Part shown: in pieces, positions 5,373 through 36,335 of the stretch
Position numbering within the stretch: the stretch's first letter is position 1
Layout of the letters: each line of letters starts with the position of its first letter
Virus record (IMG/VR): IMGVR_UViG_3300026549_000895
Coordinates: 1 to 64,000 of that record
From: a virus
Taxonomy: Duplodnaviria; Caudoviricetes
Reading direction: 5' to 3' (one strand)
DNA: 64,000 nucleotides
Made by a program: the position numbers and the translations under genes
Notes under the pieces: model-generated
The model's input: the letters and a program-made list of their open reading frames with translations, nothing else
Told to the model about the DNA's origin: nothing
Databases searched by the model: none

Positions 5373-6983
5373 TTATTTCAAGCTTGCAATTTTATCGGTA
5401 TTCTTTGAATTATTAACAATACCCATATTTGCACGAAGATCCATTAATTCATTCTTTGTTGGCATGAATTTTATATATGGAACATATCGTTTTATATCTC
5501 TACCGATATCAGGACCTACTGCATTTTCCGCCATTACTATATAAGGTGAACCAGTAAACATTCCAGCAGCACCAATGTATTTTGGCATTACTTCATCGGT
5601 CGTATCTTTGATTAAGAAATCTAATGATGATTCCAAATCAGTAGTTTCTGTGAAAGCTTTACCGTATCGATTACAAAGTCCGGCATTATAATTGAACTCT
5701 ATGAATGATCTATTTCGATTTGCCTCTCTGTATTGATAAGCAAACTCGGCAGTTACTTGTAATCCGCCATCACCAGAAATAGGTCCGTTCTTTTCATTTG
5801 GCATTTTCAAAGATACTGAAGTTGGGAATACACCGAAATATTTCTCCCAAGAAATAATTCTTGAACCTGTTTCATCTGTTACTATATTAAATAGAGAACA
5901 AGGATAATCCAATGCTCTATCAAATGGATGATATGTTCCGGTTTTATCATTGCTGAATTTGAACTTATTTCCAGCATTCGGGAAGTAATTCTCGTATTGA
6001 TATCCATTATAAGAAGGAAGCAAATATCCCATGGTGAGCTTGTATTCATACATTATCCACATTCTGATGAATTCATAAACATCCAAGTTACGAGTTTCAT
6101 TAAATGTCAATGATAATGTAGCACCTTTCAAAGATTCCAAAACATTGTTTGGTAATTGAAAAGATGCATTCTCAATAAGGTTCAATTTGTCATCAGTATT
6201 AGACATTCCTTGAACTGCATTACTGAGCAAGAAGTTCCAATTGTGTTGAATGATAGAATCATATCCAACTGTGCCAGTTACATAAACCGGTGACAGTAGC
6301 ATAGAAATGTGCGGCATTCTCATAAATGAGGAAGCAAAATCTTCATCTGATTCACATTGTTGAGATAATTGAACATTTCCATTTTTGGTAGACATTATAT
6401 AGCATTCAGGTCTGGTAAAGAATATATGACGGAAACCCTTACGGAAAGCTATGTTAGCATCCGGAGTTTTGGTTCTATTATATAATCTGAATGAACGAGT
6501 CAAAGCCTCACTGACACCTGAATACAAAAATGGATGTATTGGTGATAAAGGAGGAACTGCTTTATCGTTTCCAAGTTTCTCACGAACCGTTTCAATGTCA
6601 TAAGTATCAAGACCAAAGTTTTGCATGGTCTCAACTGCAGGATCATCCAGAGGATTTCTGTGAGTTGTTGCACCGGAGTAAACAGGCACTTCTGTACCAT
6701 CATCTTTGGTAATCTTTACAGGCAAATCTTCCTGACCTGGAACATTGACATCTCTCGTGAAATGTTCACTGGCGTCTTTTATCAAGAACTCGGGTTTACT
6801 ATTCTCGATAGGTTGATAACCTTTCAACTCCATATGATCTTCAGGAGTCAGTTCTTTATAGTTCTTTGTTCTTTGATACGAAGTGTTACCTATCCAAATA
6901 TTCTCCTTTTGTTGTATAGGTGATACGAACAAAGGTCCATCCGATTTTGGATAACCTGAATCATTATTGTTGTTATTAGCCAT
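5373..6983 (-). CDS. Virion structural protein, tail-tube-like fold (tube initiator/baseplate)
   Basis: HIFFTRP, LSLTFNET...FIRMW, LDYPCSLF...KYFGVFPTSV patterns typical of gp19/gp54-like proteins. Confidence 0.55.
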   Translation of the reverse strand: MANNNNNDSGYPKSDGPLFVSPIQQKENIWIGNTSYQRTKNYKELTPEDHMELKGYQPIENSKPEFLIKDASEHFTRDVNVPGQEDLPVKITKDDGTEVPVYSGATTHRNPLDDPAVETMQNFGLDTYDIETVREKLGNDKAVPPLSPIHPFLYSGVSEALTRSFRLYNRTKTPDANIAFRKGFRHIFFTRPECYIMSTKNGNVQLSQQCESDEDFASSFMRMPHISMLLSPVYVTGTVGYDSIIQHNWNFLLSNAVQGMSNTDDKLNLIENASFQLPNNVLESLKGATLSLTFNETRNLDVYEFIRMWIMYEYKLTMGYLLPSYNGYQYENYFPNAGNKFKFSNDKTGTYHPFDRALDYPCSLFNIVTDETGSRIISWEKYFGVFPTSVSLKMPNEKNGPISGDGGLQVTAEFAYQYREANRNRSFIEFNYNAGLCNRYGKAFTETTDLESSLDFLIKDTTDEVMPKYIGAAGMFTGSPYIVMAENAVGPDIGRDIKRYVPYIKFMPTKNELMDLRANMGIVNNSKNTDKIASLK

Positions 6984-7028
6984 TGAGAATCCTCCTCCTT
7001 TCTTTATTTAATTTGACTTTCATAATCA

Positions 7029-7988
7029 TCATCCTATCGACTGGTTCAACAGTGTCAGAACCGATTTAGTTACATCCTTTACAACTCTATTCAGACCGAA
7101 CTGAGTCAGAGCAGATTTGTAATTTGCCGATGTTACAACGAGGAACAAGTACTGAAGATTTTCTAATGCGAACACAATACTCATTCCACAACAACTATTG
7201 AACATTGAGAGATACTGTGTACTCAGATCTTTATATCTAATAGGATTGATTTTCTTTATCAATTCCAAATATGTCATGAAGTTGTTATCAGGCATTGCCT
7301 TAACTTCTTCAACAACAGTCTTTATCAAAGTAGAATCTATCTTGTCAGCAATGATAGATTTTACAGGCAATGAAGCAGCATCCAAGGAATCCTTACCATC
7401 AATGCAACTGTAGAAATATGCGATTGTATACAGCATTGCCTTTGTGAGATTTTCACCTTTCATGTATAATCTCTGTTCCATAGGCGATGTTGTCATTATG
7501 GTATATACCCAACACATCTTCTGCATGAGAGATCTGTTCATTGTGAACTTGTTAGGATGCTTTACTAAGTTCAGAGCAAGATAACCAGCTTCCATTACAG
7601 TAAGAAGATTTCTATACTCAGAAGATGATGTTATGTTCTTCATAAAGGAAGAAGCAAAAACGAATACCTTCTGGTCATTTCCAACCTTTGTAACAAGGAA
7701 AGGAATTGTAGAAGGAACGCTTTTGATATTGGACTGGAATTCCTTATTGAAATGAATTATGATATCTCCTTTTTCAAAAGCACTGACAACTTTCTTAGCA
7801 AGAGCATCGCCGTTCAGTTTCATCAGAGATAATATCTCCGTAAGAGTTTCCTTTGTAACAAAATGTGATTTGTCTTTGAGAGCCGCTAACACATTTGCTT
7901 TTACAGAAGGCTGCTCATATTGTTTCTTAAATAATGAAGTTTCCGAAAGCTTCGGAAGGGCTTGTTCAGTTACGAACGTAATAGCCAT
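7029..7988 (-). CDS. Hypothetical protein, probably virion-associated
   Basis: Start reassigned to ATG 7988 (MAITFVTEQ) after AAAGGA RBS; first gene of the unit containing portal. Confidence 0.5.
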   Translation of the reverse strand: MAITFVTEQALPKLSETSLFKKQYEQPSVKANVLAALKDKSHFVTKETLTEILSLMKLNGDALAKKVVSAFEKGDIIIHFNKEFQSNIKSVPSTIPFLVTKVGNDQKVFVFASSFMKNITSSSEYRNLLTVMEAGYLALNLVKHPNKFTMNRSLMQKMCWVYTIMTTSPMEQRLYMKGENLTKAMLYTIAYFYSCIDGKDSLDAASLPVKSIIADKIDSTLIKTVVEEVKAMPDNNFMTYLELIKKINPIRYKDLSTQYLSMFNSCCGMSIVFALENLQYLFLVVTSANYKSALTQFGLNRVVKDVTKSVLTLLNQSIG

Positions 7989-8117
7989 AAAATCAGTCCT
8001 TTCAATATAATTTATTTTAATTTCGATCAAATAGTCTATCGAAGATTACTGGTGCGTTTTGAAAATATCCCCGGCGGAAAACCGCCGGTTAACATTTTCA
8101 TAGAAGGTGGTTATAAA

Positions 8118-9383
8118 ATGAGTATAAGTTATTCGACATTATATCGAGTATCAATGTCGATACTAACACCAGGAGAATCCTTTACGGTCACTCCATCAGA
8201 CATTGTCTCGATATCTATTATAAATGAATATGACACGAACACGTATCCTATTGTACGTATTCGATTATATACTGATATATCTACTTATCATACCATGATA
8301 GAGTATCCGCATGATATTTCCATAAACATGAATCTGGATGGCGGTATCTACAAGATGGCTGAACAAACTGATGAAAGCAAGTCTCCTCAACTTGTAAGAG
8401 CCTCAAAAAGTATCAACATCAGTATGCAAGGATATATTGAGAAAAAGAATGCTCCTTCTTCAAAATTCGATGATTACGAAAATGGAATCAAGAAAAATAG
8501 TTCTCTGAATACTTCCGTAAAAGTTCCAATCGAATTATATGGATACAATGAAATGCTGACTCACAAAATGCGACAAAGAGTTCAGAGTGTTTACAAAGAT
8601 TTATCATTACAAACAACTCTTGAGAATTGTTTCCGTAAGAATGACATATTAGATTTTGAAATAGAAACCATTCAGAATGCAAAGAAATGGGATCAAATAT
8701 TAATTCCAAATCTTTCATGTCGTGACGCTGTCATATTTCTTGACACTCAGTATGGTTTATATGATAAAGGCGGTTTGATATTCGGAGATTGGGATGGTAT
8801 TAAAGTTTGTTCATCCAATGTTGATAATGGAAAGAAAACAATACCAATCTATGTTGATTCAAAAGATTCAAATTCCGATATGTCTGGTATGCAAAAATAC
8901 GGTGATACATTCATGATGGTAACACAAGCTCCAAATGTGAATGTATTAACAGAAACTGATATCGAAAGAGTGTTCAATTCATATTATGTTGATGATATAA
9001 ATCTGGATACTCACGAAGTGAATATTGGTACTTTGAAGAAATTGTATTCTTCAGACTATGGTAGTAGACTTGCCATAAGGACGATAGACCGTACTAAAGA
9101 ATTAGCAATACCGGATATTCTTCACAAGAGTTCATCACCATATGTTGTCAATACTTATATTGCAAGATTAATCGAGAATGTTACAAGAGTCGATGTGTCA
9201 GGTGCTGGATTTGATATTACACAATTCACGGTTGATAATCGATTCAATCTAATCTTTAAATCACCAATACGAGGTGTTGATATGAATACTCGATACAGAG
9301 CAAGATATGTTAATCATGTATTGGGAAACATTGATTCTGATTTATTTTCACCAACGACAACATTGTCGTTATGTTCTAATTAA
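8118..9383 (+). CDS. Putative baseplate hub-like virion protein
   Basis: Start at ATG 8118 after GAAGGTGG; beta-rich ~420 aa; function inferred from size, pattern and context only. Confidence 0.4.
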   Translation: MSISYSTLYRVSMSILTPGESFTVTPSDIVSISIINEYDTNTYPIVRIRLYTDISTYHTMIEYPHDISINMNLDGGIYKMAEQTDESKSPQLVRASKSINISMQGYIEKKNAPSSKFDDYENGIKKNSSLNTSVKVPIELYGYNEMLTHKMRQRVQSVYKDLSLQTTLENCFRKNDILDFEIETIQNAKKWDQILIPNLSCRDAVIFLDTQYGLYDKGGLIFGDWDGIKVCSSNVDNGKKTIPIYVDSKDSNSDMSGMQKYGDTFMMVTQAPNVNVLTETDIERVFNSYYVDDINLDTHEVNIGTLKKLYSSDYGSRLAIRTIDRTKELAIPDILHKSSSPYVVNTYIARLIENVTRVDVSGAGFDITQFTVDNRFNLIFKSPIRGVDMNTRYRARYVNHVLGNIDSDLFSPTTTLSLCSN

Positions 9384-21167: not shown

Positions 21168-24100
21168 TTATCGAACATTTCCAACATAGTTGGGAGGGAT
21201 AACATCCAGATTATCAATATTGATGATTAATTTGTATGCTACGGGGGTTTGCGGGTCAGATGATTCTTTTTGTGTTTCAACCAAGTTCGCCACTATTTTT
21301 GTATTAGGTGAAATACCAACTGGAGCCTCATGAGTCAATCTCTTTCCATCATCATACAATACTTCATATCCCAATGACAAAAGCTTTTGATATGTTCCCC
21401 TTAATCTGAACACAGGTTCATCGTGAGCATATGATTCTTCATCAGCCTGAATATCAGAATTATCAAAGTGAGCTATATCATGCAAAGACAATGCATCATG
21501 CGGAATCAATCTCAATGTCATATGAGATATTTCATCATACAATTTGAGCATGTTTGAATTTCCACCATTGTCAAGTATTCCATCAAACATGTATATGAAT
21601 TCTTCTTTAGTGAATTCTACCATGTATGATTTGAAATACGATATTACTTCTTTCAATATCCTGAAATATTCTTCTTGTCCTAAAGAAGCGTAATATAATC
21701 CTGTAAGAGAATTATCAGCATATGTTTCTAATGCTCTAACGAGAGAACGAATCGTGAGGACAACGGAATCTGTATTGTTCTTAATAGAGAATAAGTATTT
21801 GTACAGAGAAGGATTATCTAAGAAAAGAAGAGATTCAAATGTACGAGGACCATCCGAAGAAGCACCAGAATCCAACATGACTTTGTCAATTATGATATTT
21901 GAGAAGTTTGACTTTACTGATGAATTCAACTGAGTAGAAGTCTGTACAGCTGCAATAGTATGCGACTCCATGTACTTTACAAAAGTATCAACAAAGTCTT
22001 GATTGTGGAATGGTTGTTCCTCAGATATAACCAGATCATATGAATACTCATTCAGAATATTATAGAATGAAATAGGATAATTTTTTCCTTCAAATCTGAT
22101 ACGAATATCTTCGTGGTCACGAGTGAAGATATTGTATTTCAGAATGTTCCATTGCGTAATGGATATTCCGAATTGTTCCATAATACTCTTATCGATATCA
22201 AGAGATATTGTATCATACCAATTGCGTTCAGGATCAACCAAGAACAAAGCCTGATATGCATCGGTTACCTGACGATACTGATTTATCTTTGTAGAATCAA
22301 GCAGCTTCTTTTCCAGATATTTGTACAACAAACGAACTTCTTCTAACAATGACGAAGCTATGTTAGAAGTCTTTCTGTCAAGAATGTTATCCAACATTGG
22401 CTTGAATGTTGAAGGTTCTAAGTAATCCATATTCGGAATAGCATTATACCAATCTGGCTTTGTTGTTCTGACATCGTAATCAAATGATGCTACTTGGAAA
22501 GGTATGCCAAGTTTGAAATCCTTTGGAGAACCGTCGGCATTTAATCCGTTGAATAATAAGTCCAAACAAGCTGCTTCTCCATTATAGACTCCATTAGGAA
22601 GATACATATCTCCTCTCATGGTATCGACAATTTCAGTTCCATCTGTATCTGTGAATTTGATTGTGAGATGCCATTGCATTAAAAGAATTAATGACAATAC
22701 AGCATCAAACAAAGATATGTCTGAAGTTCCATTTATTATCATATTTGAATTTATCAGAGTATTCTTTGTTTCATTCTTTTCATCAAGAATACCTCTCAAG
22801 AATATTGTCAAATCCCACCAGATATCCGTAAAGGATAAATGGGTAGATAATTGAATATACTTTGAATTTGATAAAGTGTAATTCATATCCTGAAGCATCT
22901 GTTCCACTTCAGGTGTGTTCCACCATCTTGGGTCTCCTGATGTAATCTCTTCAACAGAATATGTTTTGTTGGAATCCCTGAATTGGAAATATGATGTATT
23001 ATCCTCAGCAGTTCCAAATCTTCTAAAACAAATATACTGCTTCGGAATGTATTGTCCTTCATTCTCAGGATCTTCTACATAGACAGGAATTCCATTTTCA
23101 AACACTTGTTGCTTTACCATTATCAAAGTATAGATATCTGTGTATTCATATCCAATTAAATCTTTGACACGATAACATTTGTTTGTTCCTTTGTCAATAA
23201 GAATCTTTCGGAAATGTTTCAAGAAATCAATCATTCCATTTCCTTCCATTATAACAGAAGGCAAACCGTACAACGAGAAAAAATCATTTGCTGTAACGGT
23301 ATTCATGTGAATCATTGAAGATGATTTATGCATTAATGAATTCATTGTTTGGCCAATAGCCATATAGATTGCTAAGAATCTAATAAATGAATCATAATTA
23401 ACATAAATAGCAGAGAAGTTTCCTCGTAATGTACCGAAGATATACTCTCTTACCTTTGCATAGGTATCAATAAACTCATGAACTATCTGAGCTTCAACAG
23501 TTATGTTTCCGAAGATAGTGTTAGATGAATACAGTTTATGAGTATTGACCTTCATCAATTCGCCATCCTTGGCAGGACGGGAAACATGAATTGGTACGGC
23601 ATAAGAACCTATATGCTTTAAGTATTCCAAATTAGGATGTTCTTCAAGAGTCTTCTGATAATATTCCGAGTTAATAAACATCTCCTGATATTTCTCGGAC
23701 ATCATGTGAATGGGTTCGCCTCTATAGATTTCTCCTTCCATATAATACTGCATATAGAAGTCATCTGGAATCGTTACGACCTCATCAGCTTTGATAGTCT
23801 GAGAACCAGCAAATGGAATTCCTGCAAGTCTTGAATAGTAAGGATTCATTTCAACATAGCTATCAATGTACATTTGTCTATACTTGACTAACAATGTTTG
23901 TTTAACATCAAACGGAATCAATATTGGATTCATGAGAATCTTTGAAATTTGTTCATCTGATAAATTCTTTTTTACCAGTTCAGCAATTATGTCACTCGCT
24001 TGATATTCATAAGATTCGAAAATATCTGTTTTGAGACATGCTCTAACATACATATCTCCAGCTTTCTTGATATCAACGGTTTCATATTTATTTGCTTCAT

Positions 24101-24182
24101 GACGATTTTTGAATTCAGAGTTTGTTACAATCAATTGAATCTTTAACAAATACTCTGACATTGGGTTCATAGCAGATGCCAT
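21168..24182 (-). CDS. Large putative virion structural protein (1004 aa)
   Basis: YVEMNPYYSRLAGIP and FKSY motifs recall large structural proteins of jumbo phages; unverified. Confidence 0.45.
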   Translation of the reverse strand: MASAMNPMSEYLLKIQLIVTNSEFKNRHEANKYETVDIKKAGDMYVRACLKTDIFESYEYQASDIIAELVKKNLSDEQISKILMNPILIPFDVKQTLLVKYRQMYIDSYVEMNPYYSRLAGIPFAGSQTIKADEVVTIPDDFYMQYYMEGEIYRGEPIHMMSEKYQEMFINSEYYQKTLEEHPNLEYLKHIGSYAVPIHVSRPAKDGELMKVNTHKLYSSNTIFGNITVEAQIVHEFIDTYAKVREYIFGTLRGNFSAIYVNYDSFIRFLAIYMAIGQTMNSLMHKSSSMIHMNTVTANDFFSLYGLPSVIMEGNGMIDFLKHFRKILIDKGTNKCYRVKDLIGYEYTDIYTLIMVKQQVFENGIPVYVEDPENEGQYIPKQYICFRRFGTAEDNTSYFQFRDSNKTYSVEEITSGDPRWWNTPEVEQMLQDMNYTLSNSKYIQLSTHLSFTDIWWDLTIFLRGILDEKNETKNTLINSNMIINGTSDISLFDAVLSLILLMQWHLTIKFTDTDGTEIVDTMRGDMYLPNGVYNGEAACLDLLFNGLNADGSPKDFKLGIPFQVASFDYDVRTTKPDWYNAIPNMDYLEPSTFKPMLDNILDRKTSNIASSLLEEVRLLYKYLEKKLLDSTKINQYRQVTDAYQALFLVDPERNWYDTISLDIDKSIMEQFGISITQWNILKYNIFTRDHEDIRIRFEGKNYPISFYNILNEYSYDLVISEEQPFHNQDFVDTFVKYMESHTIAAVQTSTQLNSSVKSNFSNIIIDKVMLDSGASSDGPRTFESLLFLDNPSLYKYLFSIKNNTDSVVLTIRSLVRALETYADNSLTGLYYASLGQEEYFRILKEVISYFKSYMVEFTKEEFIYMFDGILDNGGNSNMLKLYDEISHMTLRLIPHDALSLHDIAHFDNSDIQADEESYAHDEPVFRLRGTYQKLLSLGYEVLYDDGKRLTHEAPVGISPNTKIVANLVETQKESSDPQTPVAYKLIINIDNLDVIPPNYVGNVR

Positions 24183-25148: not shown

Positions 25149-25205
25149 TCAATTTCCCTCCTTTCATAAATGATGCTCCGGCTATCAAGCCGGAGCTTTA
25201 TATTT

Positions 25206-25750: not shown

Positions 25751-26578
25751 TCAATAAGGATCATCGATTCCTCTTGTGAAGAATTTCTTACTGATGATTG
25801 AATACATAACATCCCAATCGGATAAACCTGAACTATTTCTCATAGCGTACTGATCTGCAACTTCATGAATCTCTTTTGGAGAATGCATTTCAATACCTCT
25901 AACATTCTTGAACAGTTCTATTCTTTGTTCAGTTGAAATTCTGGATCTCAAATCTCTATCAGTATATCGTCTTCCACAATCCTGACATTTATATTCTGCA
26001 TAGGTTTTATTTAATGGCACCATTCTATGAGAACCACAAACACAACCAAACAGATTTAATGAAGCTGGAAAGATATATCCATAATCGATACACTTTGGTT
26101 TTCCGTTACTTAATCCCCAATTGGCATAAGTCTCTGAAACCAATCCGACATCTCCAAGAACATATCCTTCGTCAGTCCATCTTTTCAGAATCTTTACAAT
26201 TTCATCCTGATAGAAATTCATTTCTGTGAATGATGTGAATGCAGGTACATAGGAGGCCACCAACAGGTGGCCTCTTCTGCTTATTTCATGAGCAAACGCT
26301 ACATCTTTCAAAGGCTTACAAATAGCCCACTCCTGCATATTATCTGCCATACCTTCTTCATCGAGAGCAAGCTTGAATGCATACGTATCATATCTAAATA
26401 TGAATCGATTAGTACCAGTACCAATCTCTGTCCAATCAATACCACTTTCGTTCAAAGCTTCTATTGCTTTTTCACGTTTAGTGGAAGCTCTCATTCCATA
26501 TTGATATGGCAATTCACCGAATTTCATTCTTACTTCCAATGGGAGCAAATGTATTCTTGACATATATTCTGCTTTCAT
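25751..26578 (-). CDS. Protein kinase-like fold protein with C-terminal zinc ribbon
   Basis: Gly loop IGTGTNR, AFK lysine, NMQE glutamate, catalytic LGDVG...NWG, IDYG; CxC...CxxC. Confidence 0.75.
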   Translation of the reverse strand: MKAEYMSRIHLLPLEVRMKFGELPYQYGMRASTKREKAIEALNESGIDWTEIGTGTNRFIFRYDTYAFKLALDEEGMADNMQEWAICKPLKDVAFAHEISRRGHLLVASYVPAFTSFTEMNFYQDEIVKILKRWTDEGYVLGDVGLVSETYANWGLSNGKPKCIDYGYIFPASLNLFGCVCGSHRMVPLNKTYAEYKCQDCGRRYTDRDLRSRISTEQRIELFKNVRGIEMHSPKEIHEVADQYAMRNSSGLSDWDVMYSIISKKFFTRGIDDPY

Positions 26579-26601
26579 TACATTTCTCCTATATAGAATA
26601 A

Positions 26602-27327
26602 TTATTTATTCGGAAAATTCTTTTCTGCATATCCTTCCCAGTTTGCATACGGATCATCATTTGACTGAGGAATGGCCGGCTGAAGAGATGATTCGAATGC
26701 CTCTCTTCTGTTGTCGTAAGGATGCTCATACGCATTCTTCCAAGGATTTATCTGAGGAGGAATGGGTCTTTCCTCAACATAAGTATTGTCCCAGTTAGAA
26801 GTCACTGATCTTTCAAAACCAGATATTTCCATACCGAAAGCAGTTCCGTTGTCTGAAACATATGGAGCATATGGATTATTATAAGAATATCCATTTATGC
26901 TTTTCTGCTGAGGATTTTCATAAGAATTGGAGTCATAACCAAACTGGTCACAGCCATTATTGATAGGAAGCTTATCATTCCTTCTGCTTCCATCAAAGTG
27001 ATCAGTGGGTCTGTCATATTTCGTTGTTTCAAAATAGCCGTTCGGATAGCCATTCTGATATCTCATTGGGTCTTCATGCTGAGCCCAAGGATTAGAAGGC
27101 TCATTATCATAAGACTTGTTTCTGTCGAAAGGATTCTCAACAGGTCCGTTATAAACATCAGTTCTATAATTAACATCAGACCTTCTGGAACCTTCGAAGC
27201 CGGAACGATACTGCTGGTTGCTATTATAATTTTCTCCTGAATAGAAGAATGTTTTTTCTTCAGGGTTATCATTGTAACAATACAAATCCTTGAAGTTTCC
27301 TATCGGTGTGTTTTCTGGATAATCCAT
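26602..27327 (-). CDS. Low-complexity N/Y/P/D/S-rich disordered protein
   Basis: 241 aa with very few aliphatic residues; repeated NP[FWY] and GSRR[SN]D. Confidence 0.65.
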   Translation of the reverse strand: MDYPENTPIGNFKDLYCYNDNPEEKTFFYSGENYNSNQQYRSGFEGSRRSDVNYRTDVYNGPVENPFDRNKSYDNEPSNPWAQHEDPMRYQNGYPNGYFETTKYDRPTDHFDGSRRNDKLPINNGCDQFGYDSNSYENPQQKSINGYSYNNPYAPYVSDNGTAFGMEISGFERSVTSNWDNTYVEERPIPPQINPWKNAYEHPYDNRREAFESSLQPAIPQSNDDPYANWEGYAEKNFPNK

Positions 27328-27671
27328 TTAGATTTCCTGACGATTTGTTCTTACCCAAGTACTCCAACGAGTATGACAGTAAGCTATCACCCGGTGTCGA
27401 ATCCGGGCTAATTATGAATTAAATATTAATCGTCTTTTCCTTTTCGTAATATTTTCAACATAATATATTTAATCCATTAAAGCATTTTTAAAATGCTTGA
27501 TGTGAGATTCTCAAATCACAAATTAACTATTCATGGGTATCTTGGTTATCGATTACCAATTAATTTGTGATTGTTATATAGATATATTCTGATTTTTGGA
27601 TGTTATCAAATCAACAATTTTCCTCCTTTTTAAATTTTGTAATAGTATGTATCTTGGTATGGGATAAATAA

Positions 27672-28304
27672 TTATCCCACCAAGAACAGAGTAAGTTGCC
27701 AGTTCATCATTTCGAGAATTTCATCAACGATATTATCCGATACAGTTCTCCACAGAACTCTGAAGATTTCATACTCGGAATTTATCTTCTCAAGCTTGCC
27801 AACGGACTGAGAGAAACCATCAGTTCTCTTTGTAATCTTCTCCTCTAATGACTGAGGTAATCTGAACATCTTCTTTGCAATCTGTTCATCATACTCATTC
27901 ATTCTTCCGGATACATTTGTCTCAATTACGCCGGTATACATGATACCGAGATCCTGAGCAAGTCTGTTCATAACAGAAAGAACAATTCCAAGCTGTCTCT
28001 GGAACTGAGATCTCGGAACGGGAAGTGAGATGAGATAGATTCCATTAGGAACAGTATCAGCTTCAGCCTCTCTGAGGATACAACCTGAGTTTGCGAGAAT
28101 AGGACGACAAGCACTGTCGAGCTGTTTCATTCTTTCAGCTCCGCATCTTGCGTTCATATATCCCTCATCCTGCATGAGAATCTTCACGCTCATGAAACGC
28201 TCTCTGAACGCTGTCGGGGGATAAGCTCTTTCTGTAAGGGCTGCATATGGAACGTCTTCCGAAGGACCCAATACATGATTCTGTAATGATGTGATGTTTA
28301 CCAT
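27672..28304 (-). CDS. Hypothetical protein
   Basis: Start reassigned to ATG 28304 after AAGGAGG; promoter motif at ~28378-28402. Confidence 0.6.
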   Translation of the reverse strand: MVNITSLQNHVLGPSEDVPYAALTERAYPPTAFRERFMSVKILMQDEGYMNARCGAERMKQLDSACRPILANSGCILREAEADTVPNGIYLISLPVPRSQFQRQLGIVLSVMNRLAQDLGIMYTGVIETNVSGRMNEYDEQIAKKMFRLPQSLEEKITKRTDGFSQSVGKLEKINSEYEIFRVLWRTVSDNIVDEILEMMNWQLTLFLVG

Positions 28305-28419
28305 TGTTTTTTCCTCCTTGTGTGGAATTATAATAAATATATTTATTATGGCATGAATGTGCATTATTCACTCATGCCACATAAATGATATAAATACAAA
28401 TATAAATTTTATTTTTATT

Positions 28420-29937
28420 TTATATATTTGCATTTGCAAGAAACGATGCATTCTGTTTACCCATATAAACCGGGATTGATAGTGAAGTGTTCTCATTGAT
28501 ATCTGGTTGAAGTGCAAAGCCACCCATTGTTGAAAAAGGATGTCGAATTATTGTGACCATTCTATTTTGATCATTTGCATTCTTATCTTTTCGGACATCC
28601 CTTCGTTTAACTGCTTTAATCATCAACATTCGTTGATTACCATCATTCTCAATATGAATAACCGCAATAAAGTCTGCCGCTTCTTGAATGTCCCATGCGT
28701 TCGAGATATTAGAACTTCCAAGAACAGTTGAAGTTTTATCAAAACTACCTTTAGCCATCAATGCATCTACCTGTGCCGCTGCTTCTCTGTTCAGCTGATG
28801 TGCAGTAATTACAGGTATCTCATACTTAGCAGCAATTGCTTTGAACTCATTCATTATTGAACCAAGCTCAAGTTTCTCAGAATTTCTTATTTGAGAATCA
28901 GAACGTGCTGAACGAATTCTCTTAAGATAGTCGAAGAACAATGCTACGACATGCTGATCATCATTGTTGAGAGACGAAATGATTGCATCAATATCATCTG
29001 TTGATTTTGTTCGATATCCATAATACAGAATAACAGCTTTGCATCCATTTTTATTCAATTCATTTTGAATCATCTCAGATGCTTCTTGTGGAGTGAACAT
29101 TGTTATGTCTGCATTCGGGAACAGTATGCTCCACAATCTTCCGATGGTTTGCGACATAGTATTCTCCATAGTTATATACAAAGCTATCGGAGTCTTACCA
29201 TTACACATCATCTTCAGATTTGGATTAAATCTACAAGTATCAACCATCGATGTTAACAGCATTCCTGATTTGAAGTTGCCCGGAATACCTGCATAAACAT
29301 AGACACATCCAGGAAGATATCCGGGTGATAACAAAGTATTCAGAGCACGAATACCCGTGATGATTGCATTCTTGTCATCATTATATGTCTGCGTCTGAGC
29401 TACTACTGAATTCATCTGGTCAATATTCGAAGTATCGAAAGTATTTGATGTCGAATTAACCTGAATAGAATTGTAGTCATTTGCTATCTGTGTAGATATC
29501 TTGTACATAGTATCAACGGTTTCTTTGATATTATTACAGTCTACATCATCGGTTATCAAATCAAGAGCTTGGATGAAGGATTGTTTGGATGTTAATATCT
29601 TATGATACTTAACATAGTCACCAATTATTTCAAGTAATTGTTTGGCTTCAGACTCAGTTTTTATTGTTAACTGTTCACTTCTCTTTTTGACATTGTCAAT
29701 GATTTCACGTTCTTCATTTTCATCTTCCATCATTTCGATTATCAGATTTAATGAGAACACATTTCTCTCAATATAATGAATCATTCTATTGATTGAAAGA
29801 CAATCGATTCCTCTCTGAGGATAGACAGTAACTGCTTTCTTTATTATGTTGACATATACCGAAGAACGAAAACTTCTTTCTGGGTTACAGAGAATAGAGA
29901 GCATGTCTTTATAAAGATTTGGTCTTAATGTTTTCAC
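28420..29937 (-). CDS. dnaB: DnaB-like replicative helicase
   Basis: Walker A GIPGNFKS, H1a ITMEN, H2 FFDYL, H3 ITAHQLNR, H4 IQEAADF. Confidence 0.88.
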   Translation of the reverse strand: MKTLRPNLYKDMLSILCNPERSFRSSVYVNIIKKAVTVYPQRGIDCLSINRMIHYIERNVFSLNLIIEMMEDENEEREIIDNVKKRSEQLTIKTESEAKQLLEIIGDYVKYHKILTSKQSFIQALDLITDDVDCNNIKETVDTMYKISTQIANDYNSIQVNSTSNTFDTSNIDQMNSVVAQTQTYNDDKNAIITGIRALNTLLSPGYLPGCVYVYAGIPGNFKSGMLLTSMVDTCRFNPNLKMMCNGKTPIALYITMENTMSQTIGRLWSILFPNADITMFTPQEASEMIQNELNKNGCKAVILYYGYRTKSTDDIDAIISSLNNDDQHVVALFFDYLKRIRSARSDSQIRNSEKLELGSIMNEFKAIAAKYEIPVITAHQLNREAAAQVDALMAKGSFDKTSTVLGSSNISNAWDIQEAADFIAVIHIENDGNQRMLMIKAVKRRDVRKDKNANDQNRMVTIIRHPFSTMGGFALQPDINENTSLSIPVYMGKQNASFLANANI

Positions 29938-29990
29938 ATATATTCACACCCATTTCAATATTAAATTTTAAAAAGTATTATTCAGTATTG

Positions 29991-31787
29991 TCATTGGGGA
30001 ATATATCCATTCGGAAGTTGTTTGGGTGTAAGACCAGCATCAAATATGAATGCCTTTGTTGTTAAGAGATACTTAACAATTGATATGGAAGCTCTGAGAA
30101 CTTCAAGATCATACTGAGTTGATGTGCAGAACTTTGATGAAGTAGACACGTCATCCTTTATAACATCATATGAAACATAATATGTATCAAGAGTACATAT
30201 CAAAGTATTATAGTCTTCCAGATTAAAGTCAGAACCGTATTTCGATGTGTAAATGATTTCAACCATCTTTCTTAATGATGTATAGAACACTTCGAGAACC
30301 TGTTCAAATTTCTCATCATCTTTGTTATGATCTTTGAAATCAAGAATACGACGAACTCCATACTGAAATGAGTTTGGAACTGTTCCGAAATCGAAAGCTG
30401 ATTCTATGATATGAACACAGTCATCTATCTTGTCAGCGATGAACTTAGATTCCAGATAGGACTCACAAGTTACTGTTACCAGAGTATCCTCATGCTCAAA
30501 ACGTAAATCAGATATACGCTTCTCATATTCTTTTCTACCTGCAGGAGTCAGAGTTTCATCATTTCTGAGATCAGCTTCAAGCTGTTTGATATAATCCTTC
30601 GGAGGTTCCTTCAGGTCATAGAAACATAAGCATTTCTCATCATATACTGAAACAATGGCTTCAGGAAGTTCTTCATGTTTAATAGTATATGCTGCATTAA
30701 GAGGATGATCTTCTGTTTTGAGAATGGCTGCCAAATCCTCGATATCAGTCTTTGCATGATAAGAAGTTGTGCAAGCAAAGAACATTGTAGCATCTTTCTT
30801 AACCAATGCCATCTGCTTCAGATATGTCAAGTAATCCTCATCCATGAATTCCTTTGTATAGCTTCTTGCAATAACAAGAGTTGGAGTCTCTCTGTCGTAA
30901 TCCTTATACAAATTCATCCAATCAGAATGATTGAATTTATGATTATACAGAATTATTCTCATCTTTGATTTACCAGCTAAAGCCAGAGCAAAGTCTTCTG
31001 CCATGGATATGGATATTCTATAATCACCCGGAAGGTAATCTATTGTATACATATCCACACCCATCTTAGAAGAATCAGTCTTCTGGTTTGTTATGATAGA
31101 TCTGATAGATGTAACATTTCCGTTTTCATCGAACTTCGGATCAAAAGCCTTCGATAAGATATTCATCATTTCATCATCATAGTTTGAAGCTACTCCGATG
31201 ATAGAATTAAAGTTATCTTTGTTGAGAGGAGTAATCAGGGCGTTTTCCTTATCAAACTCTGAAGAATCAGATACAAGATACTTCTCAACCTTGTTCAGAT
31301 AATTGAACATATTTCTCTTGTCATCAGGAGTTATGCATAACTCACGAAGACGCTTATACAGTTCATTTGCAAGTAAGATACAAGTTGTTGTACCATCACC
31401 AACATTTGAATTTACTCTCTCACATATCTTCTTGATTGTAAGATATACAAGTCTCTGATAAGGGTTCGAGAAATGCAAACTCTCAACAGTTTTGAAACCA
31501 TCCTTCGTTGTAGAGTTATCACTCATTTCGGATATCATAACCTGTGAGCCGTAAGGACCATAAGTGCATCTGAGAGCCTGACACATTGTTTCGAAGGTTT
31601 CTAATACCAAAGCATTGAAATCCTCTTCAGGAATCATATTAATGTTTTTCTCTCTGGAATATCTCGTAAAGTCCATTGGTTGATTGGGTATGGGTAAGTT
31701 TGGTCTTTTGTATTCTGATGAAACTTCCGTGTTCGGGTGAATTACCTCGCTTTCATTCTTTTTCTTTTTGTGTTTGAACCAACTCAT
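29991..31787 (-). CDS. groEL: GroEL-like phage chaperonin
   Basis: TYGPYG, TKDG, GDGTTT ATP-binding motifs; 598 aa. Confidence 0.9.
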   Translation of the reverse strand: MSWFKHKKKKNESEVIHPNTEVSSEYKRPNLPIPNQPMDFTRYSREKNINMIPEEDFNALVLETFETMCQALRCTYGPYGSQVMISEMSDNSTTKDGFKTVESLHFSNPYQRLVYLTIKKICERVNSNVGDGTTTCILLANELYKRLRELCITPDDKRNMFNYLNKVEKYLVSDSSEFDKENALITPLNKDNFNSIIGVASNYDDEMMNILSKAFDPKFDENGNVTSIRSIITNQKTDSSKMGVDMYTIDYLPGDYRISISMAEDFALALAGKSKMRIILYNHKFNHSDWMNLYKDYDRETPTLVIARSYTKEFMDEDYLTYLKQMALVKKDATMFFACTTSYHAKTDIEDLAAILKTEDHPLNAAYTIKHEELPEAIVSVYDEKCLCFYDLKEPPKDYIKQLEADLRNDETLTPAGRKEYEKRISDLRFEHEDTLVTVTCESYLESKFIADKIDDCVHIIESAFDFGTVPNSFQYGVRRILDFKDHNKDDEKFEQVLEVFYTSLRKMVEIIYTSKYGSDFNLEDYNTLICTLDTYYVSYDVIKDDVSTSSKFCTSTQYDLEVLRASISIVKYLLTTKAFIFDAGLTPKQLPNGYIPQ

Positions 31788-32443
31788 TTTTCTTTTCTTC
31801 CTTTCTGGATATTATTTATTTTATCTGATTTTGCATCAGATGAATTCATTTGTTTTAAAATATCTTCCTTTTTCAATGAACCATTAAAAGATACTTTCAT
31901 TTTGGGAAGTTCAGAGCTTCTGTAATATTCTTCTATGATGTCGACACCAGCTTCCATCCGAGCCATATCATATGTCAAAAGTATGAAAGCTCTGTGAGCA
32001 ATAGTACAAATAGCCATTGCATGATTATACATGATATTGGTATATACTTTCATAACCTCTTGATTTACTTCAGGCGGTAAGTAAGGAATATCTTCACATT
32101 CATTCAGCGGCGGTGGCAAGTTCTTGATGAATGCTCGTCTCACATCTTTATACCCCATAATCGAACAATGTATGTTTTCACATTTGGTGATTATGTCCGT
32201 TCCTGACAAGATTTCAGATGGCTTGGCAAATCTGTGATTTACATATACGCGCATATACTCATGTAACTGATTATTCAGCATTATCATTAAATCATCAAAT
32301 TCTGGCGCATTATAATTAGCATCTCTTAACATAGACTCAATGTTCCTTACTATTTGCAATGTGCCTCTGACAATCCTCAAGAATGAGTCAAGGTCTCTCT
32401 TGTCTTGTCGTCGATGAATCAATCGTTTTAACTTGTTTGACAT
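31784..32443 (-). CDS. Hypothetical protein coupled to chaperonin
   Basis: 219 aa, stop overlaps chaperonin start (ATGA). Confidence 0.6.
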   Translation of the reverse strand: MSNKLKRLIHRRQDKRDLDSFLRIVRGTLQIVRNIESMLRDANYNAPEFDDLMIMLNNQLHEYMRVYVNHRFAKPSEILSGTDIITKCENIHCSIMGYKDVRRAFIKNLPPPLNECEDIPYLPPEVNQEVMKVYTNIMYNHAMAICTIAHRAFILLTYDMARMEAGVDIIEEYYRSSELPKMKVSFNGSLKKEDILKQMNSSDAKSDKINNIQKGRKEK

Positions 32444-32479
32444 ATTATCACATCCTTTCGTCTTAGCAATATATATACG

Positions 32480-33550
32480 TCAAATCTCTATTATCCTGAG
32501 AAAAACTGTGTTCTTTATTAATGAATATCTATATCTAATATCTAACGATATATTCTGATCATAAACAAATGTGGTATCTCTAAATCTATGGAAAACTGCA
32601 TCTTCCACTGATATCATATTCGCTGGATTTACATTTGTCCCAGCATACAATTTTGACGTCTGTTCATATGTTATATTGAACCTTTGAACCAATTGACAGT
32701 TATGCATTCTGAATAATGGTATGTCACCAACGTTGTTGTCAAGAGTCATAATCGTTCCAGTATGAAAATTACTTTCACCAGGTTGATTTCCTTTATAAGA
32801 CATTGAAGATCTTTTATCTGTAATAATAAACTTTTGGTTTTTCTTCAATGGGGAATTGCGTTGTTTATCATTTACTTCTTTGAGAATAACTGGATTGTTG
32901 GTTATGTGCTGAGTCATGTCCATACGTCCATAACTTCTTTTAGCTAACTTTATTTTTGTTATTCCACATTTAAATCTCTTTTCTATTCCACGAGATTCAA
33001 CACCGTACAATCTTCGTGAATAAGCAGTCATCCAATTTTGTTTGGATAATGAATCTGTTATTGTTGGATATACAGAGAATGGAAAACCTCCAACATCAAA
33101 CGGATCTGAAACAACAAAGACTTTGCAAGTTACCTGTTTCAGAATCTCATCAAGATACTCATATTCAATCAGCTGAGCATTGTTAATTACGATTACATCA
33201 ACTCCAAAGAATTTTTCTTTATCAAGAACCTTTGAAACATACTGTTGTACAGGATCAAAATTAGGAGCAAATGTATCTGTAGATGATAGAGTTATTAAAT
33301 CAAAAAACAAGTCTCGATAATAAAGATATCGAATAGGTTTATTTCTGTTCAAAACGACATTGTCTTGACACCCATCTATGAACATAATTTCTTTAGTTGC
33401 ATCCTGAGCAAGTAATGCAGCTCGTGCAACATATCTGAATATGTCTGTTCCAACAATTCCACCACAATAGAAAACTTGTTCATTATCATTACAAGCGAAA
33501 TCTTGTAAATTTTCAATCATTTCAGGTATCTCAATTATGTTATATTTCAT
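32480..33550 (-). CDS. Degenerate SF1B (Dda/RecD-like) helicase homolog
   Basis: Start reassigned to ATG 33550; GGIVGTDIF, VIVINNAQLI, FVVSDPFD, ANMISVEDA, YRYSLIKN fall in the order of SF1 motifs I, II, III, V, VI but lack catalytic residues. Confidence 0.6.
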   Translation of the reverse strand: MKYNIIEIPEMIENLQDFACNDNEQVFYCGGIVGTDIFRYVARAALLAQDATKEIMFIDGCQDNVVLNRNKPIRYLYYRDLFFDLITLSSTDTFAPNFDPVQQYVSKVLDKEKFFGVDVIVINNAQLIEYEYLDEILKQVTCKVFVVSDPFDVGGFPFSVYPTITDSLSKQNWMTAYSRRLYGVESRGIEKRFKCGITKIKLAKRSYGRMDMTQHITNNPVILKEVNDKQRNSPLKKNQKFIITDKRSSMSYKGNQPGESNFHTGTIMTLDNNVGDIPLFRMHNCQLVQRFNITYEQTSKLYAGTNVNPANMISVEDAVFHRFRDTTFVYDQNISLDIRYRYSLIKNTVFLRIIEI

Positions 33551-33635
33551 ATAATCACATCCATTTGGGAAGAAAGTTTTAAGTTGGGTCGGGGGCTTTC
33601 GCCCCCGCACCTTCTACATTGGGAGTAGTTAATGA

Positions 33636-34268
33636 TTAAAGATTGTAAAGCACATCGAGTGAAACAGGCTGACGTGTTTCTCCTTCATGGCTGATTACAG
33701 GGAACCACATGAAGTCGTTCTCATCATGTCCGAATACATTGGAATACGGAATACAGAAGTCTCCGTCAATCTTTCCTGTTGCAGGATCCTCGAGCATCTG
33801 CTCAATAATCTTCTCAGGACGAAGGAAACCGATGTGATATGGATAACCGTCTACAGGATTGATCTCTGTAAACTTGATGATTGCGTCGAGTGCACGCATA
33901 TCGATTCCTCTCTCCCACAGCTGAGCCAGAACCTCATAAGACTGCTTTGCCTGAGCAATGTTCTTCGGGAACATGAAAGGCCTGAGAAGATTAATTACAT
34001 CCTTATCATAATCACGGAACATACTCTCCTGAGCAAGCAGCTTATCTACAGCATTCTTAGGATTCTGATTTATCAGAATATTCTTAGAATGAATGGAGAT
34101 TCTGATTACTGCATATGAGCCAACGCCGTTTGGTGAATTCCACTTACGAACATCGAGTCCGTGAAGTTTGAATCCGAGTACATCATCCTCGAGATATCTC
34201 CTGATGTCAGCACATGTGATAGGATAAATATCCTTTTTGATTCTTTCGATATTTGCACGATTTGCCAT
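33636..34268 (-). CDS. Hypothetical protein
   Basis: 210 aa, AAGGAGG RBS, hairpin at 33591-33606 downstream. Confidence 0.65.
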   Translation of the reverse strand: MANRANIERIKKDIYPITCADIRRYLEDDVLGFKLHGLDVRKWNSPNGVGSYAVIRISIHSKNILINQNPKNAVDKLLAQESMFRDYDKDVINLLRPFMFPKNIAQAKQSYEVLAQLWERGIDMRALDAIIKFTEINPVDGYPYHIGFLRPEKIIEQMLEDPATGKIDGDFCIPYSNVFGHDENDFMWFPVISHEGETRQPVSLDVLYNL

Positions 34269-34291
34269 GGAATAAATCCTCCTTATGAAAT

Positions 34292-34663
34292 TTATATTTG
34301 TAATATGATGTAGATGGCGAGCACTTTAATAATATTCTTTTGCTGTGCTGACAGTTCATCATATTTTACACCGTATATTCCGGATGAAAGACGGTTAATC
34401 AATTCATCCGGAATTTCATCATCTACCGTTTTCTTATGAAGCTCAGCACTGAGTTCATCTTCGGTAAAGTTCTCAAGATATGCAGTGACATATGTGACTT
34501 TCATATTACCAAGTCTATTTTTCTTGGCTGATAAATCATTGATAATATTACTTGTAATAGACAGTATTTTCGGATTTGTTATCATTGTCGAATCCGTTGT
34601 TGGAGATACTTCCATATCAAGTGTGATATTATCACAGAACTGCTGGAAAGTCATGTCCTTCAT
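34292..34663 (-). CDS. Hypothetical protein
   Basis: 123 aa, overlaps the stop of the upstream gene. Confidence 0.6.
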   Translation of the reverse strand: MKDMTFQQFCDNITLDMEVSPTTDSTMITNPKILSITSNIINDLSAKKNRLGNMKVTYVTAYLENFTEDELSAELHKKTVDDEIPDELINRLSSGIYGVKYDELSAQQKNIIKVLAIYIILQI

Positions 34664-35235
34664 CTATATCCGCCTCCATATCCAAAGCCATCATCAGGAA
34701 ATGCATAATTCCTTTCGTCATATTCAGAACGATAAGGATTCTGCTGTTGTGGTTGTGCCTGATACTGTGACTGTGAAGAATATCCTCCCATACCATATGA
34801 CGCAGAAGAGTTTCCGCCATTTGTATTATAATTTACAGCATTATTCACTCTGCGTGTCTGTTGCTGAGGTGCATATCCACCATTACGATACGCCGGCGCT
34901 GATCTCTGCTGAGATCTGTTGCTGTACGGAACCGGATCACTTGCATATCCATATCCATAAGAATAAGGATTGGTATTCTGCGGTCTATTATTGTATCCGC
35001 GATTTGGTCCTGCCTGATAAGGCTCTGATGCATAACCAACATCATTTCTACGTGAAGTTGGATCGCATGACTGTGCACTTCTCTGAGATCTCCTGTTATC
35101 ACTAACTGGAGTATCGAACAAAGAATCCATATCAGGTGATTCTACTCTTCTGGCTTCAGATGCCATGTCAATACCAGCTTTCGCCATGCCTGACAGAAGA
35201 TCAAATACCTGATCAGCTGAAATGTTTCTGTCCAT
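34660..35235 (-). CDS. Prion-like Y/G/Q/N/R/S-rich disordered protein
   Basis: AAAGGAG RBS; short N-terminal helix followed by low-complexity tail. Confidence 0.7.
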   Translation of the reverse strand: MDRNISADQVFDLLSGMAKAGIDMASEARRVESPDMDSLFDTPVSDNRRSQRSAQSCDPTSRRNDVGYASEPYQAGPNRGYNNRPQNTNPYSYGYGYASDPVPYSNRSQQRSAPAYRNGGYAPQQQTRRVNNAVNYNTNGGNSSASYGMGGYSSQSQYQAQPQQQNPYRSEYDERNYAFPDDGFGYGGGYR

Positions 35236-35324
35236 TGTGTATCACTCCTTTAAATATTAAATTTATATTTCATCATTCTTCGATTAATGATAATCATAAG
35301 TTATCCTCTCTGAATGATTAAATA

Positions 35325-36185
35325 TCATATTACATTTCCAACATAATTCTCAGGAATATATGTTGTTTCTGTTCCATTCTCGAGTTCTTTACGACGTCTA
35401 TTGATATCGTAATCTATCTCGGGAGTTGTTACTCGGGAATATCCATGATCTTCTTCCCAGATATATTTGTCAAGGCTTTCGATATAATCATCTGACCACA
35501 TATCTCGTTCTTTATCAACAAGAAGGTCCTTGTACGCTCTGGAAGCATCAGATTCTTCCTTTGTATAACCATATGCATCTACATATTGATTATTATTCCA
35601 ATAATCATTTTGTGGATAAGATGAGAGCACAGGCTGGTCATATGATGAGAATGGATTCAGATTTGCATATGGAGGATGATGGTGTAATATATTTTCATCC
35701 ACTAAAGGTGTGTCATCATACCTTCTTCCAAACATATCAAATCTATGGTTGGATAAATCCGGATTGAACATCGGTCCATAAAGAGTTCCATATCCATGAT
35801 AAGGATCTGAATAGATATCATAATTCTGATATCTCGGATCATTTATAATATCAGGATTTACGCGATAAAGATTCTTTAAGAAAGCTGCTGAATCACTAAC
35901 CTTTACCTGTGTCGGAGGATAAGATGTATATCCATATCCGTATGATTCATTGTTATACGTATACGGATTTCTTTCCGGAGTCGGAGCCGGATCAAGAGGC
36001 GTTGGTCCTCTCGAATCATTCATTATTCCATCTCTATTTGTGATGGGTTCGTACGTATGAGAATCTATAACAGTCCACTCACGTGTGAATATCTTAAATA
36101 TTCCACCAAAGATTCCCTTGAAGATTGCTTTAATTCCTCTGCCTATGAAACAGAAGAAATTACCTATAGCATTAAAAAATCCCAT
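35325..36185 (-). CDS. Protein with N-terminal amphipathic helix and Y/P/D/N-rich disordered region
   Basis: MGFFNAIGNFFCFIGRGIKAIFKGIFGGIFKIF; AAAGGA RBS; promoter motif at ~36254-36278. Confidence 0.65.
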   Translation of the reverse strand: MGFFNAIGNFFCFIGRGIKAIFKGIFGGIFKIFTREWTVIDSHTYEPITNRDGIMNDSRGPTPLDPAPTPERNPYTYNNESYGYGYTSYPPTQVKVSDSAAFLKNLYRVNPDIINDPRYQNYDIYSDPYHGYGTLYGPMFNPDLSNHRFDMFGRRYDDTPLVDENILHHHPPYANLNPFSSYDQPVLSSYPQNDYWNNNQYVDAYGYTKEESDASRAYKDLLVDKERDMWSDDYIESLDKYIWEEDHGYSRVTTPEIDYDINRRRKELENGTETTYIPENYVGNVI

Positions 36186-36335
36186 GAGATTATATTCCTT
36201 TCTATTTAATTTATCAATATTGATTTTATTAAATGAGACAATTCCTTATCCCATCCATCTAAAGTATATACATATATAAAATATATTATTCCCCGGGATT
36301 AACCCGGGGAATATTTAACATACTTTCTTTTGTTT

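Follow-up and report, generated by a model that had tools for sequence, protein, structure and literature searches.

Phage-encoded condensate and scaffold proteins have been described only lately, among them ChmC of the Chimalliviridae (bioRxiv 10.1101/2023.09.22.559000) and Gp27 of phage SPO1 (PMC13401047), both of which drive the formation of condensates during infection. How jumbo phages that lack the shell protein chimallin organise their replication is not known. In the Nucleocytoviricota, the scaffolds of viral factories keep a disordered-region 'grammar' without sequence homology (PMC12415211). Here we describe three proteins, designated S1, S2 and S3, that are encoded on the minus strand of a 64,000-nucleotide stretch of phage DNA (positions 1 to 64,000 of IMG/VR record IMGVR_UViG_3300026549_000895, hereafter the window). 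We read them as three unrelated disordered families, rich in aromatic and polar residues, that share one conserved operon with a DnaB-like helicase, a GroEL-like chaperonin and a kinase-fold protein. Rather probably, they form a network, for docking or for self-association, that is built on shared short motifs.

The trio is like ChmC and Gp27 in being phage-encoded, and the regions that drive condensates in those two proteins are likewise disordered and Asn/Gly-rich, or modular; ChmC also comes from a jumbo phage. Unlike S1 and S2, which have neither a folded domain nor a nucleic-acid-binding fold, ChmC and Gp27 carry a folded domain that binds nucleic acid or polymerase. Moreover, their demixing has been demonstrated, whereas the trio is known from sequence only and belongs to a genome with no detectable chimallin. 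We found no published description of a motif-sharing disordered trio.

Three protein families and their shared motifs

The window makes up the first 64 kb of a 239,830-bp contig (36% G+C) from an uncultured jumbo phage, whose virus record is ~89% complete. This genome encodes a split RNA polymerase beta and, as the initial annotation of the window had stated, a tubulin (PF00091, 15570-16664), a divergent DnaB and a GroEL-like chaperonin. Its relatives are metagenomic contigs of ~225-295 kb, among which rumen-style sample names are common. No close relative was found among GenBank phages, either by megablast of the region or by tblastn of the kinase and of a conserved protein of 1004 amino acids (aa) from the same block, and the GroEL-like protein, used as a single query, matched none of the viral contigs scanned. 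We fetched 22 relative loci (L001-L022) around homologues of the kinase, five by exact look-up and 17 from IMG/VR. The gene order S3-S2-p123-p210-p376-p219-GroEL-like-DnaB-like-p230-S1-kinase-p174-...-p302-p1004 is unchanged in every locus that spans the whole block, and the synteny of all three slots in the 22 loci persists down to ~45-50% kinase identity. In the relatives, the S1, S2 and S3 slots are always occupied by a protein that is rich in Q/N/P/Y/G and has a hydrophobic fraction of ~0.17-0.35, and the protein in the S3 slot is a predicted membrane-anchored, low-complexity one.

S1, S2 and S3 are genuine genes, and the three Tyr-rich open reading frames (ORFs) of low complexity exist as first described. 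Tyrosine makes up 10.0% of S1, 9.9% of S2 and 10.1% of S3, compared with 5.1% of the proteome, which places them at ranks 3, 4 and 1 among the 175 proteins of the genome with at least 100 aa. For the summed content of N, Q, S, G, Y and P they rank 2, 1 and 6, and for hydrophobic fraction 175, 174 and 172. DNA tandem repeats do not account for this low complexity. A strong ribosome-binding site (RBS) precedes S2, whose stop codon and the start codon of p123 overlap (ATGA). A 206-aa ORF (34485-35105, plus strand) lies antisense to S2, is longer than S2 and would mislead a gene caller that is based on length; we take it for a low-complexity artefact because the S1, S2 and S3 genes are real and their arrangement is conserved. 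Upstream of S1, the gap to p230 (27328-27671) measures 344 nt in the window and ~20-50 nt in the relatives. A three-codon ORF comes after a strong AAAGGAGG in this gap, which has no Rfam match and includes a CCCGG...CCGGG hairpin ~60 nt upstream of the S1 start.

With profile searches, the S1 family grew by 33 proteins and the S2 family by 16, with homologue E values down to 1e-77. S3 diverges fastest of the three: phmmer against 1.8 billion representatives detected one other cluster at 50% identity, plus fragments, and no more. None of the trio matches a Pfam or PHROG family, PHROG structural families included, and a feature search of the ESM Atlas gave no usable match for S1. Compared with the nearest relative, these sequences have a nonsynonymous divergence (dN) of 0.41-0.51; in S1 and S2 synonymous sites are saturated, such that dN/dS is not computable for this pair of proteins.

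S1 is predicted to be disordered. From a 21-sequence alignment, AlphaFold2 (AF2) returned a model with a mean predicted local distance difference test score (pLDDT) of 49.8 and a predicted template modelling score (pTM) of 0.16, containing helices at residues 12-16 and 230-237 and nothing else. FoldIndex is below 0 over 98% of S1, 84% of S2 and 78% of S3, and ranks S1 first and S2 sixth for disorder among the 175 proteins; the ordered-looking parts are N-terminal, comprising the first 30 residues of S2 and the first 44 of S3. Thus, the disorder initially proposed for all three proteins was borne out at the level of prediction, by AF2 and FoldIndex for S1 and by FoldIndex for S2 and S3.

The likeness between these proteins resides in short motifs. 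Pairwise BLASTP among S1, S2 and S3 is not significant (E at least 0.026), and hhalign of the S1 and S2 profiles aligned six columns, SRRNxx, and nothing beyond. The resemblance of S1 to S2 is therefore a shared motif and not paralogy, an explanation that these results reject for the trio. Three copies of SRR[SN]D are present as the initial annotation had listed them, and their distribution is narrower than that list implied: S1 contains both GSRRSDV and GSRRNDK, S2 contains TSRRNDV, and the motif is absent from S3. NP[YFW] does occur in all three (four, two and two copies in S1, S2 and S3, or 8 in 718 residues against 1.0 expected), YGYGY is common to S2 and S3, and DNRR is found in S1 and S2. 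Across the whole proteome (~75,000 residues), every copy of SRR[NS]D (3/3), YGYGY (2/2) and DNRR (2/2) is confined to the trio. Composition-preserving shuffles gave P<=2e-4 for each motif, for patterns that were picked after the fact.

Comparison with the relatives separates the motifs that last from those that do not. The S1 family has the layout NPDYP...FYYNG, [DE]SRRN, QPFxxYPP, G[FL]Nx[LF]x[ED]SRRN, NPWA, FDKK..W, NWxxIAxxNW, and the S2 family consists of a helical lDxiFnGa segment, SRRN, YGYGY (or YPWA), GYPGfxNPxYG and a Gly-rich aromatic C-terminus. Conservation in related phages is thus seen for SRRN in S1 and S2 and for YGYGY/YPW[AG] in S2 and S3. Outside the window, DNRR persists in the closest S1 relative alone and in none of the S2 relatives, and was discarded as a family motif. 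At the SRRN sites, the serine is kept in 33/36 cases in S1 and 16/17 in S2 (49/53 overall), and both arginines are kept in 36/36 and 17/17. The codons vary, serine being written by TCN and AGY and arginine by AGR and CGN, and it is therefore the peptide, not the DNA, that is under selection. We also considered [DE]SRR as a prohead-protease site with cleavage before the serine, and rejected it: Asp and Glu are equally common before the serine, and the copies in the window have Gly or Thr there.

The motifs also change together. In all 17 loci that have both S1 and S2, the class of the motif agrees between the two proteins, being canonical in both in 13 cases. The remaining loci have SRAN in S1 and no motif in S2 (L003), ARR in S1 and PRR in S2 (L011 and L016), or no motif in either (L019), and a large L003-like subfamily in the database combines DSRAN in S1 with an S2 that lacks SRR. 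Similarly, S2 and S3 have YGYGY or [YN]PW[AG] in common, and in one clade (L005, L010, L014 and L017) both carry YPW[AG] in place of YGYGY. We regard this co-variation between proteins as suggestive, a grade set by the small number of independent events, which is just three or four.

Several terminal segments could anchor such proteins. The initial annotation had assigned an amphipathic N-terminal helix to one of the three, and this helix is indeed predicted in S3. It is cationic and amphipathic in the window, L001 and L002 (hydrophobic moment, muH, ~0.65, net charge +3 to +4), and is a plain hydrophobic transmembrane helix (hydropathy KD19 >1.6) in most other lineages. One or the other form is predicted in 15 of 20 S3 copies, and these 15 are the copies not cut by the end of a locus. 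The C-terminal helix of S1 is the sole confidently predicted structure in that protein. This helix and the N-terminal segment of S2 more likely bind protein than lipid, because they are amphipathic but neutral or acidic. At the other end of S3, the motif [IV]PxNY[VY]GN occurs at or near the terminus in the window, L001, L002 and L011/L016, and is degenerate in L018-L020. This motif is likewise the ending of the 1004-aa protein in 12 loci, namely the window and 11 of those fetched, and NY[VY]GN looks like a C-terminal docking signal shared by two otherwise unrelated proteins. With a dN/dS of 0.07, the 1004-aa protein is conserved more strongly than any other product of the block; it has no recognisable family, and a feature search of the ESM Atlas gave only unnamed clusters for it.

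S1 ends 23 nt upstream of a gene that was initially said to have a kinase fold. The predicted structure agrees: the product is, by its AF2 model (pLDDT 85, pTM 0.80), a protein of protein-kinase fold whose catalytic residues are intact. Foldseek matched the model to ROCK, RIO2 and PRPK at probability 1.00, and VIA gave Z scores of 9.0-9.9 to CDKL1, Rio1/2, Bud32, PRPK and ULK1, the top matches all being kinases. The protein has more than 230 homologues. In 25 of them, G53-T-G-T-N-R-F59, K69, E83, D143, N153 and D165 are invariant, and catalytic roles were assigned to these residues from their order along the predicted secondary structure. A CxC...CxxC ribbon lies downstream of the core. No Pfam family was matched at E<=0.01 and no PDB entry by sequence; the sole match was phrog_4301, of unknown function. 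The protein is similar to RIO1/RIO2 and Bud32/PRPK in its small bilobal fold (Z 9-10 over ~130-155 aligned residues) and in its invariant Gly-rich loop, Lys, Glu, Asp, Asn and Asp. It differs from them in that the Asn lies 10 residues past the putative catalytic Asp rather than 5, and in the zinc ribbon that follows the core. The structural neighbours include kinases of RNA and of small molecules as well, and we therefore assign no class of substrate. Complex prediction for the kinase and S1 scored 0.00 in both runs, which is evidence neither for nor against an interaction.

Most relatives of the kinase have a low-confidence C-terminal tail with NPDxPDPY that ends in Trp and resembles the N-terminal NPDYP of the S1 family. 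The kinase in the window is without NPDxPDPY and ends in DDPY, a tetrapeptide that is also present near the C-terminus of S1. In BFVD, annotated viral kinases match the model too; the closest viral matches (TM 0.6) are uncharacterised proteins of 608-751 aa from uncultured Myoviridae. The kinase core therefore also exists fused to large extra domains.

Docking network, condensate and other readings

In the arrangement that we favour, the trio would constitute one multivalent interaction network made of shared short linear motifs. Its components would be [DE]SRRN in S1 (twice) and in S2, YGYGY or [YN]PW[AG] in S2 and S3, NPW in S1, and NPxYG in S2. These motifs might recruit the three proteins to a single folded partner or modifying enzyme; alternatively, they might bind one another. 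The N-terminal helix of S3 would anchor the network on the cytoplasmic side of the membrane, the helical N-terminus of S2 probably holds the translationally coupled p123, and S1 would most likely be a client or a regulator of the kinase next to it. Any binding, targeting to the membrane or phosphorylation, and demixing into a condensate if it occurs, are inferred from the patterns described above. Since the motifs are discrete and co-vary between proteins, a docking or modification network fits the data at least as well as a generic condensate does.

Several observations weigh against this network. The co-variation of motifs comes down to three or four independent lineages. Some lineages have Ala or Pro in place of the motif serine, which speaks against its being an obligatory phospho-acceptor. 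No partner of the motif emerged: a scan for alignment columns in the neighbouring proteins that co-vary with motif class gave one conservative change (M to F/L/I, in the 376-aa protein). Two columns of that protein had at first tracked the SRRN class, of which one persisted with all loci included, and we do not treat it as a usable lead. The S3 protein of the window has few relatives and, with a dN/dS of 0.20, evolves like a folded protein. Finally, the copies in the window are more charged (S1 net -16, S3 net -17) than their nearly uncharged relatives, with charged residues making up 24-25% of S1 and S3 compared with ~5-10% in the relatives.

The initial annotation had gone further, and proposed a membrane-tethered, phase-separated replication factory that functions without chimallin, is tuned by the kinase and is possibly positioned by the tubulin. 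We consider this unlikely, even though much of the evidence is compatible with it. The proteins are aromatic and polar in composition and low in hydrophobic residues, S1 and S2 are predicted to be disordered, S3 has its predicted membrane helix, the operon includes the DnaB-like, GroEL-like and kinase genes, the tubulin gene is nearby, and ChmC and SPO1 Gp27 provide precedents for condensates in phage infection. Even spacing of aromatic residues has reportedly been described for domains of the hnRNPA1/FUS type. We measured the patterning of Y, F and W against 300-500 shuffles, with 80 proteins of the same genome serving as controls. For S1, the aromatics are more even than in the shuffles in 21/21 sequences (mean z -1.70), and the copy in the window (z -2.99) lies below all 80 controls (mean z -0.28). 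The signal is weaker in S2 (mean z -1.17), and S3 shows no clear one (mean z -0.62), such that its aromatics do not count as evenly spaced stickers.

Other features of the factory are harder to reconcile with the data. Conservation sits in discrete motifs and not in bulk composition, and Arg is down to 1-3% in most relatives. Operon membership is the sole link to replication, with no sign of replication proteins as clients. As the initial annotation had noted for the window, no chimallin is recognisable: PF25677 and phrog_4795, two hidden Markov models (HMMs) that were shown to recognise phiKZ gp54, are silent in six frames over the whole contig. This negative result is compatible with the factory, but it is a weak one because the search used sequence HMMs only, the family is highly divergent and the genome is ~89% complete. 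Taken as a whole, the initial interpretation is partly supported, namely for the reality and conservation of the genes, their predicted disorder, the shared motifs, the predicted N-terminal helix of S3 and the kinase-fold neighbour of S1; beyond this, the trio might demix, and the kinase might act on it.

The SRR motif and the predicted membrane anchor of S3 also suggest proteins directed at the host, which would act as decoys or hijackers that mimic host linear motifs and thereby sequester a host machine at the membrane or redirect it. Candidates for such mimicry would be the S-R-R-x-F recognised in twin-arginine translocation (Tat) by TatC, or motifs of a divisome or cell-wall factor. We think this quite improbable. 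Many copies share with the Tat motif S/T-R-R-x-F-L-K the core S-R-R, often followed by x-F/M/I/V (DSRRNF, ESRRF, TSRRF), and the rapid evolution of the sequences is of a kind common among host-interaction proteins. Tat motifs of signal peptides, however, precede a hydrophobic h-region, whereas the SRR motifs here are internal, at residues 42-135 (roughly 45-130 residues into the chain), and what follows them is polar sequence, never a hydrophobic segment. In addition, the position of the Tat phenylalanine is Asp in 12/36 S1 sites and in all three sites of the window.

A different function is brought up by the NY[VY]GN ending, which could be a packaging or docking signal if these were virion-associated or ejected proteins (of the internal head, or injected early), their disorder easing packaging and ejection. 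The motif is conserved in the 1004-aa protein and in S3 of several lineages, and the 1004-aa protein, for which the initial annotation had guessed a role in the virion, is under the strongest constraint in the block. Against this, the operon to which the genes belong also encodes replication and chaperone proteins and is separate from the head-gene cluster at 53-64 kb, the trio has no counterpart among structural families, and nothing marks the 1004-aa protein, itself without a family, as a virion component. We assign this explanation a low likelihood as well. That the three are compositional artefacts or fast-decaying filler ORFs without specific function is barely credible: the lack of family matches and the ORF open opposite S2 would fit, but the reading is contradicted by the conservation data, in that the genes keep their reading frame, the strand of the operon and their slots across 22 loci, have invariant motifs with varying codons and database homologues, and include S2 with its RBS and its translational coupling to p123.

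The gene block

Coordinates of the trio, its motifs and the genes around it are collected in Table 1.

Table 1. Positions of the S1, S2 and S3 genes, their motifs and neighbouring features in the window.
Feature	Position	Strand	Remark
S1, 241 aa, Y/N/P-rich, predicted disordered	26602..27327	-	directly upstream of kinase in 21/22 loci
S1 motif 1, SRRSD, residues 47-51	27175..27189	-	family consensus [DEG]-S-R-R-N
S1 motif 2, SRRND, residues 114-118	26974..26988	-	longer in relatives: G[FL]Nx[LF]x[ED]SRRN
S1 C-terminal amphipathic helix (predicted), NWEGYAEKNF	26614..26643	-	family NWxxIAxxNW; helix 230-237, pLDDT ~83
S2, 191 aa, N-terminal helical segment, then predicted disordered Y/G/S/Q/N-rich tail	34660..35235	-	
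S2 SRRND, residues 61-65	35041..35055	-	
S2 YGYGY, residues 93-97	34945..34959	-	in most S2 orthologues; YPWA instead in one clade
S3, 286 aa, N-terminal membrane helix (predicted), then Y/D/P/N-rich region	35325..36185	-	
S3 N-terminal amphipathic cationic helix (predicted), residues 1-33	36087..36185	-	muH 0.65, net +4
S3 YGYGY, residues 82-86	35928..35942	-	
S3 C-terminal NYVGNVI	35328..35348	-	motif also ends 1004-aa protein
1004-aa protein (21168-24182), C-terminal NYVGNVR	21171..21191	-	conserved protein, function not assigned
RIO/Bud32-like kinase-fold protein, minimal, 275 aa, C-terminal Zn ribbon	25751..26578	-	predicted fold
DnaB-like helicase, divergent	28420..29937	-	PF20307, E 7e-32
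GroEL-like chaperonin	29991..31787	-	PF00118; phrog_5725, E 8e-49
p376, conserved 376-aa protein	32480..33610	-	no family detectable by sequence
p123, conserved 123-aa protein, family not recognised	34292..34663	-	translational coupling to S2
Terminator-like hairpin 5' of S3	36287..36313	-	probable upstream limit of transcription unit
Terminator-like hairpin 3' of 174-aa gene	25175..25196	-	probable downstream limit of unit

The limits of the transcription unit are probably set by the two hairpins. A match to a sigma-70-like promoter (36217-36189) ends 4 nt before the start codon of S3 and overlaps its RBS; we treated it as spurious, and promoter-like sites are not commoner here than in shuffled sequence. 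An Rfam scan of 20-38 kb gave no match above threshold. Below threshold, caiA RNA was matched at the junction of DnaB and p230 (28302-28385, minus strand; 39.7 bits, where the gathering score is 55.5; E 0.001), probably by chance.

Of the proteins in this block, p376 had initially been called a dead helicase. That assignment could not be confirmed at the sequence level: p376 has no match in Pfam or PHROG, a 20-sequence profile found none in the PDB, and no member of the family matches a helicase Pfam. Similarity to SF1B Dda/RecD helicases was thus not detectable by sequence.

The DnaB-like gene, uninterrupted in the window, is in two pieces (~420 aa and ~80 aa, 250-1100 nt apart) in eight relatives, namely L003, L004, L008, L009, L013, L015, L017 and L022 (at ~6500-8600 of each locus). 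In L009, L013 and L015, an additional ORF of 162-258 aa lies between the pieces. The split is probably due to an intron or to the insertion of a homing endonuclease. Some relatives, including L003-L005, also have a PF18909 (dGTP_diPhyd_N) gene between the kinase block and p302, where the window genome has none.

Comparison with described systems

It is distinctly unlikely, in our estimate, that jumbo phages encoding tubulin and lacking chimallin organise replication in a membrane-tethered condensate that is built by S1, S2 and S3 through co-evolving sticker motifs (SRRN, YGYGY/PWA) and is switched by a dedicated minimal kinase. If true, this would constitute a second route to compartmentalisation of a phage genome, one that does without a proteinaceous shell. 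The clade supplies three small, motif-defined disordered proteins together with a dedicated kinase, which makes the idea directly testable, within the practical limit that the phage and its host are both uncultured. Even without a condensate, three unrelated disordered families whose motifs change in step would be a clean natural case of motif co-evolution, and such co-evolution provides a handle for finding the interaction partner.

The prion-like domains of FUS and hnRNPA1 offer the most familiar comparison for composition. Like them, the trio is rich in Tyr, Phe and Trp together with Gly, Ser, Gln, Asn and Pro, is poor in aliphatic residues, is predicted to be disordered and, in S1, has evenly spaced aromatics. 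There is no sequence homology, and the trio and its relatives are proteins of 100-700 aa from bacterial viruses. The copies in the window are also rich in Asp and Glu. Most of all, the highest conservation in the trio is found in discrete motifs (SRRN, YGYGY, PWA and NWxxIAxxNW) that co-vary between proteins.

The factory scaffolds of the Nucleocytoviricota are similar to the trio in another respect, since the slots of S1, S2 and S3 are likewise conserved while their sequences diverge beyond recognition, and the grammar of disordered regions would be what preserves their function. The two systems differ in what is retained. In the viral-factory scaffolds the grammar consists of charge patterning, whereas in these mostly near-uncharged phage proteins it consists of aromatic spacing and short motifs.

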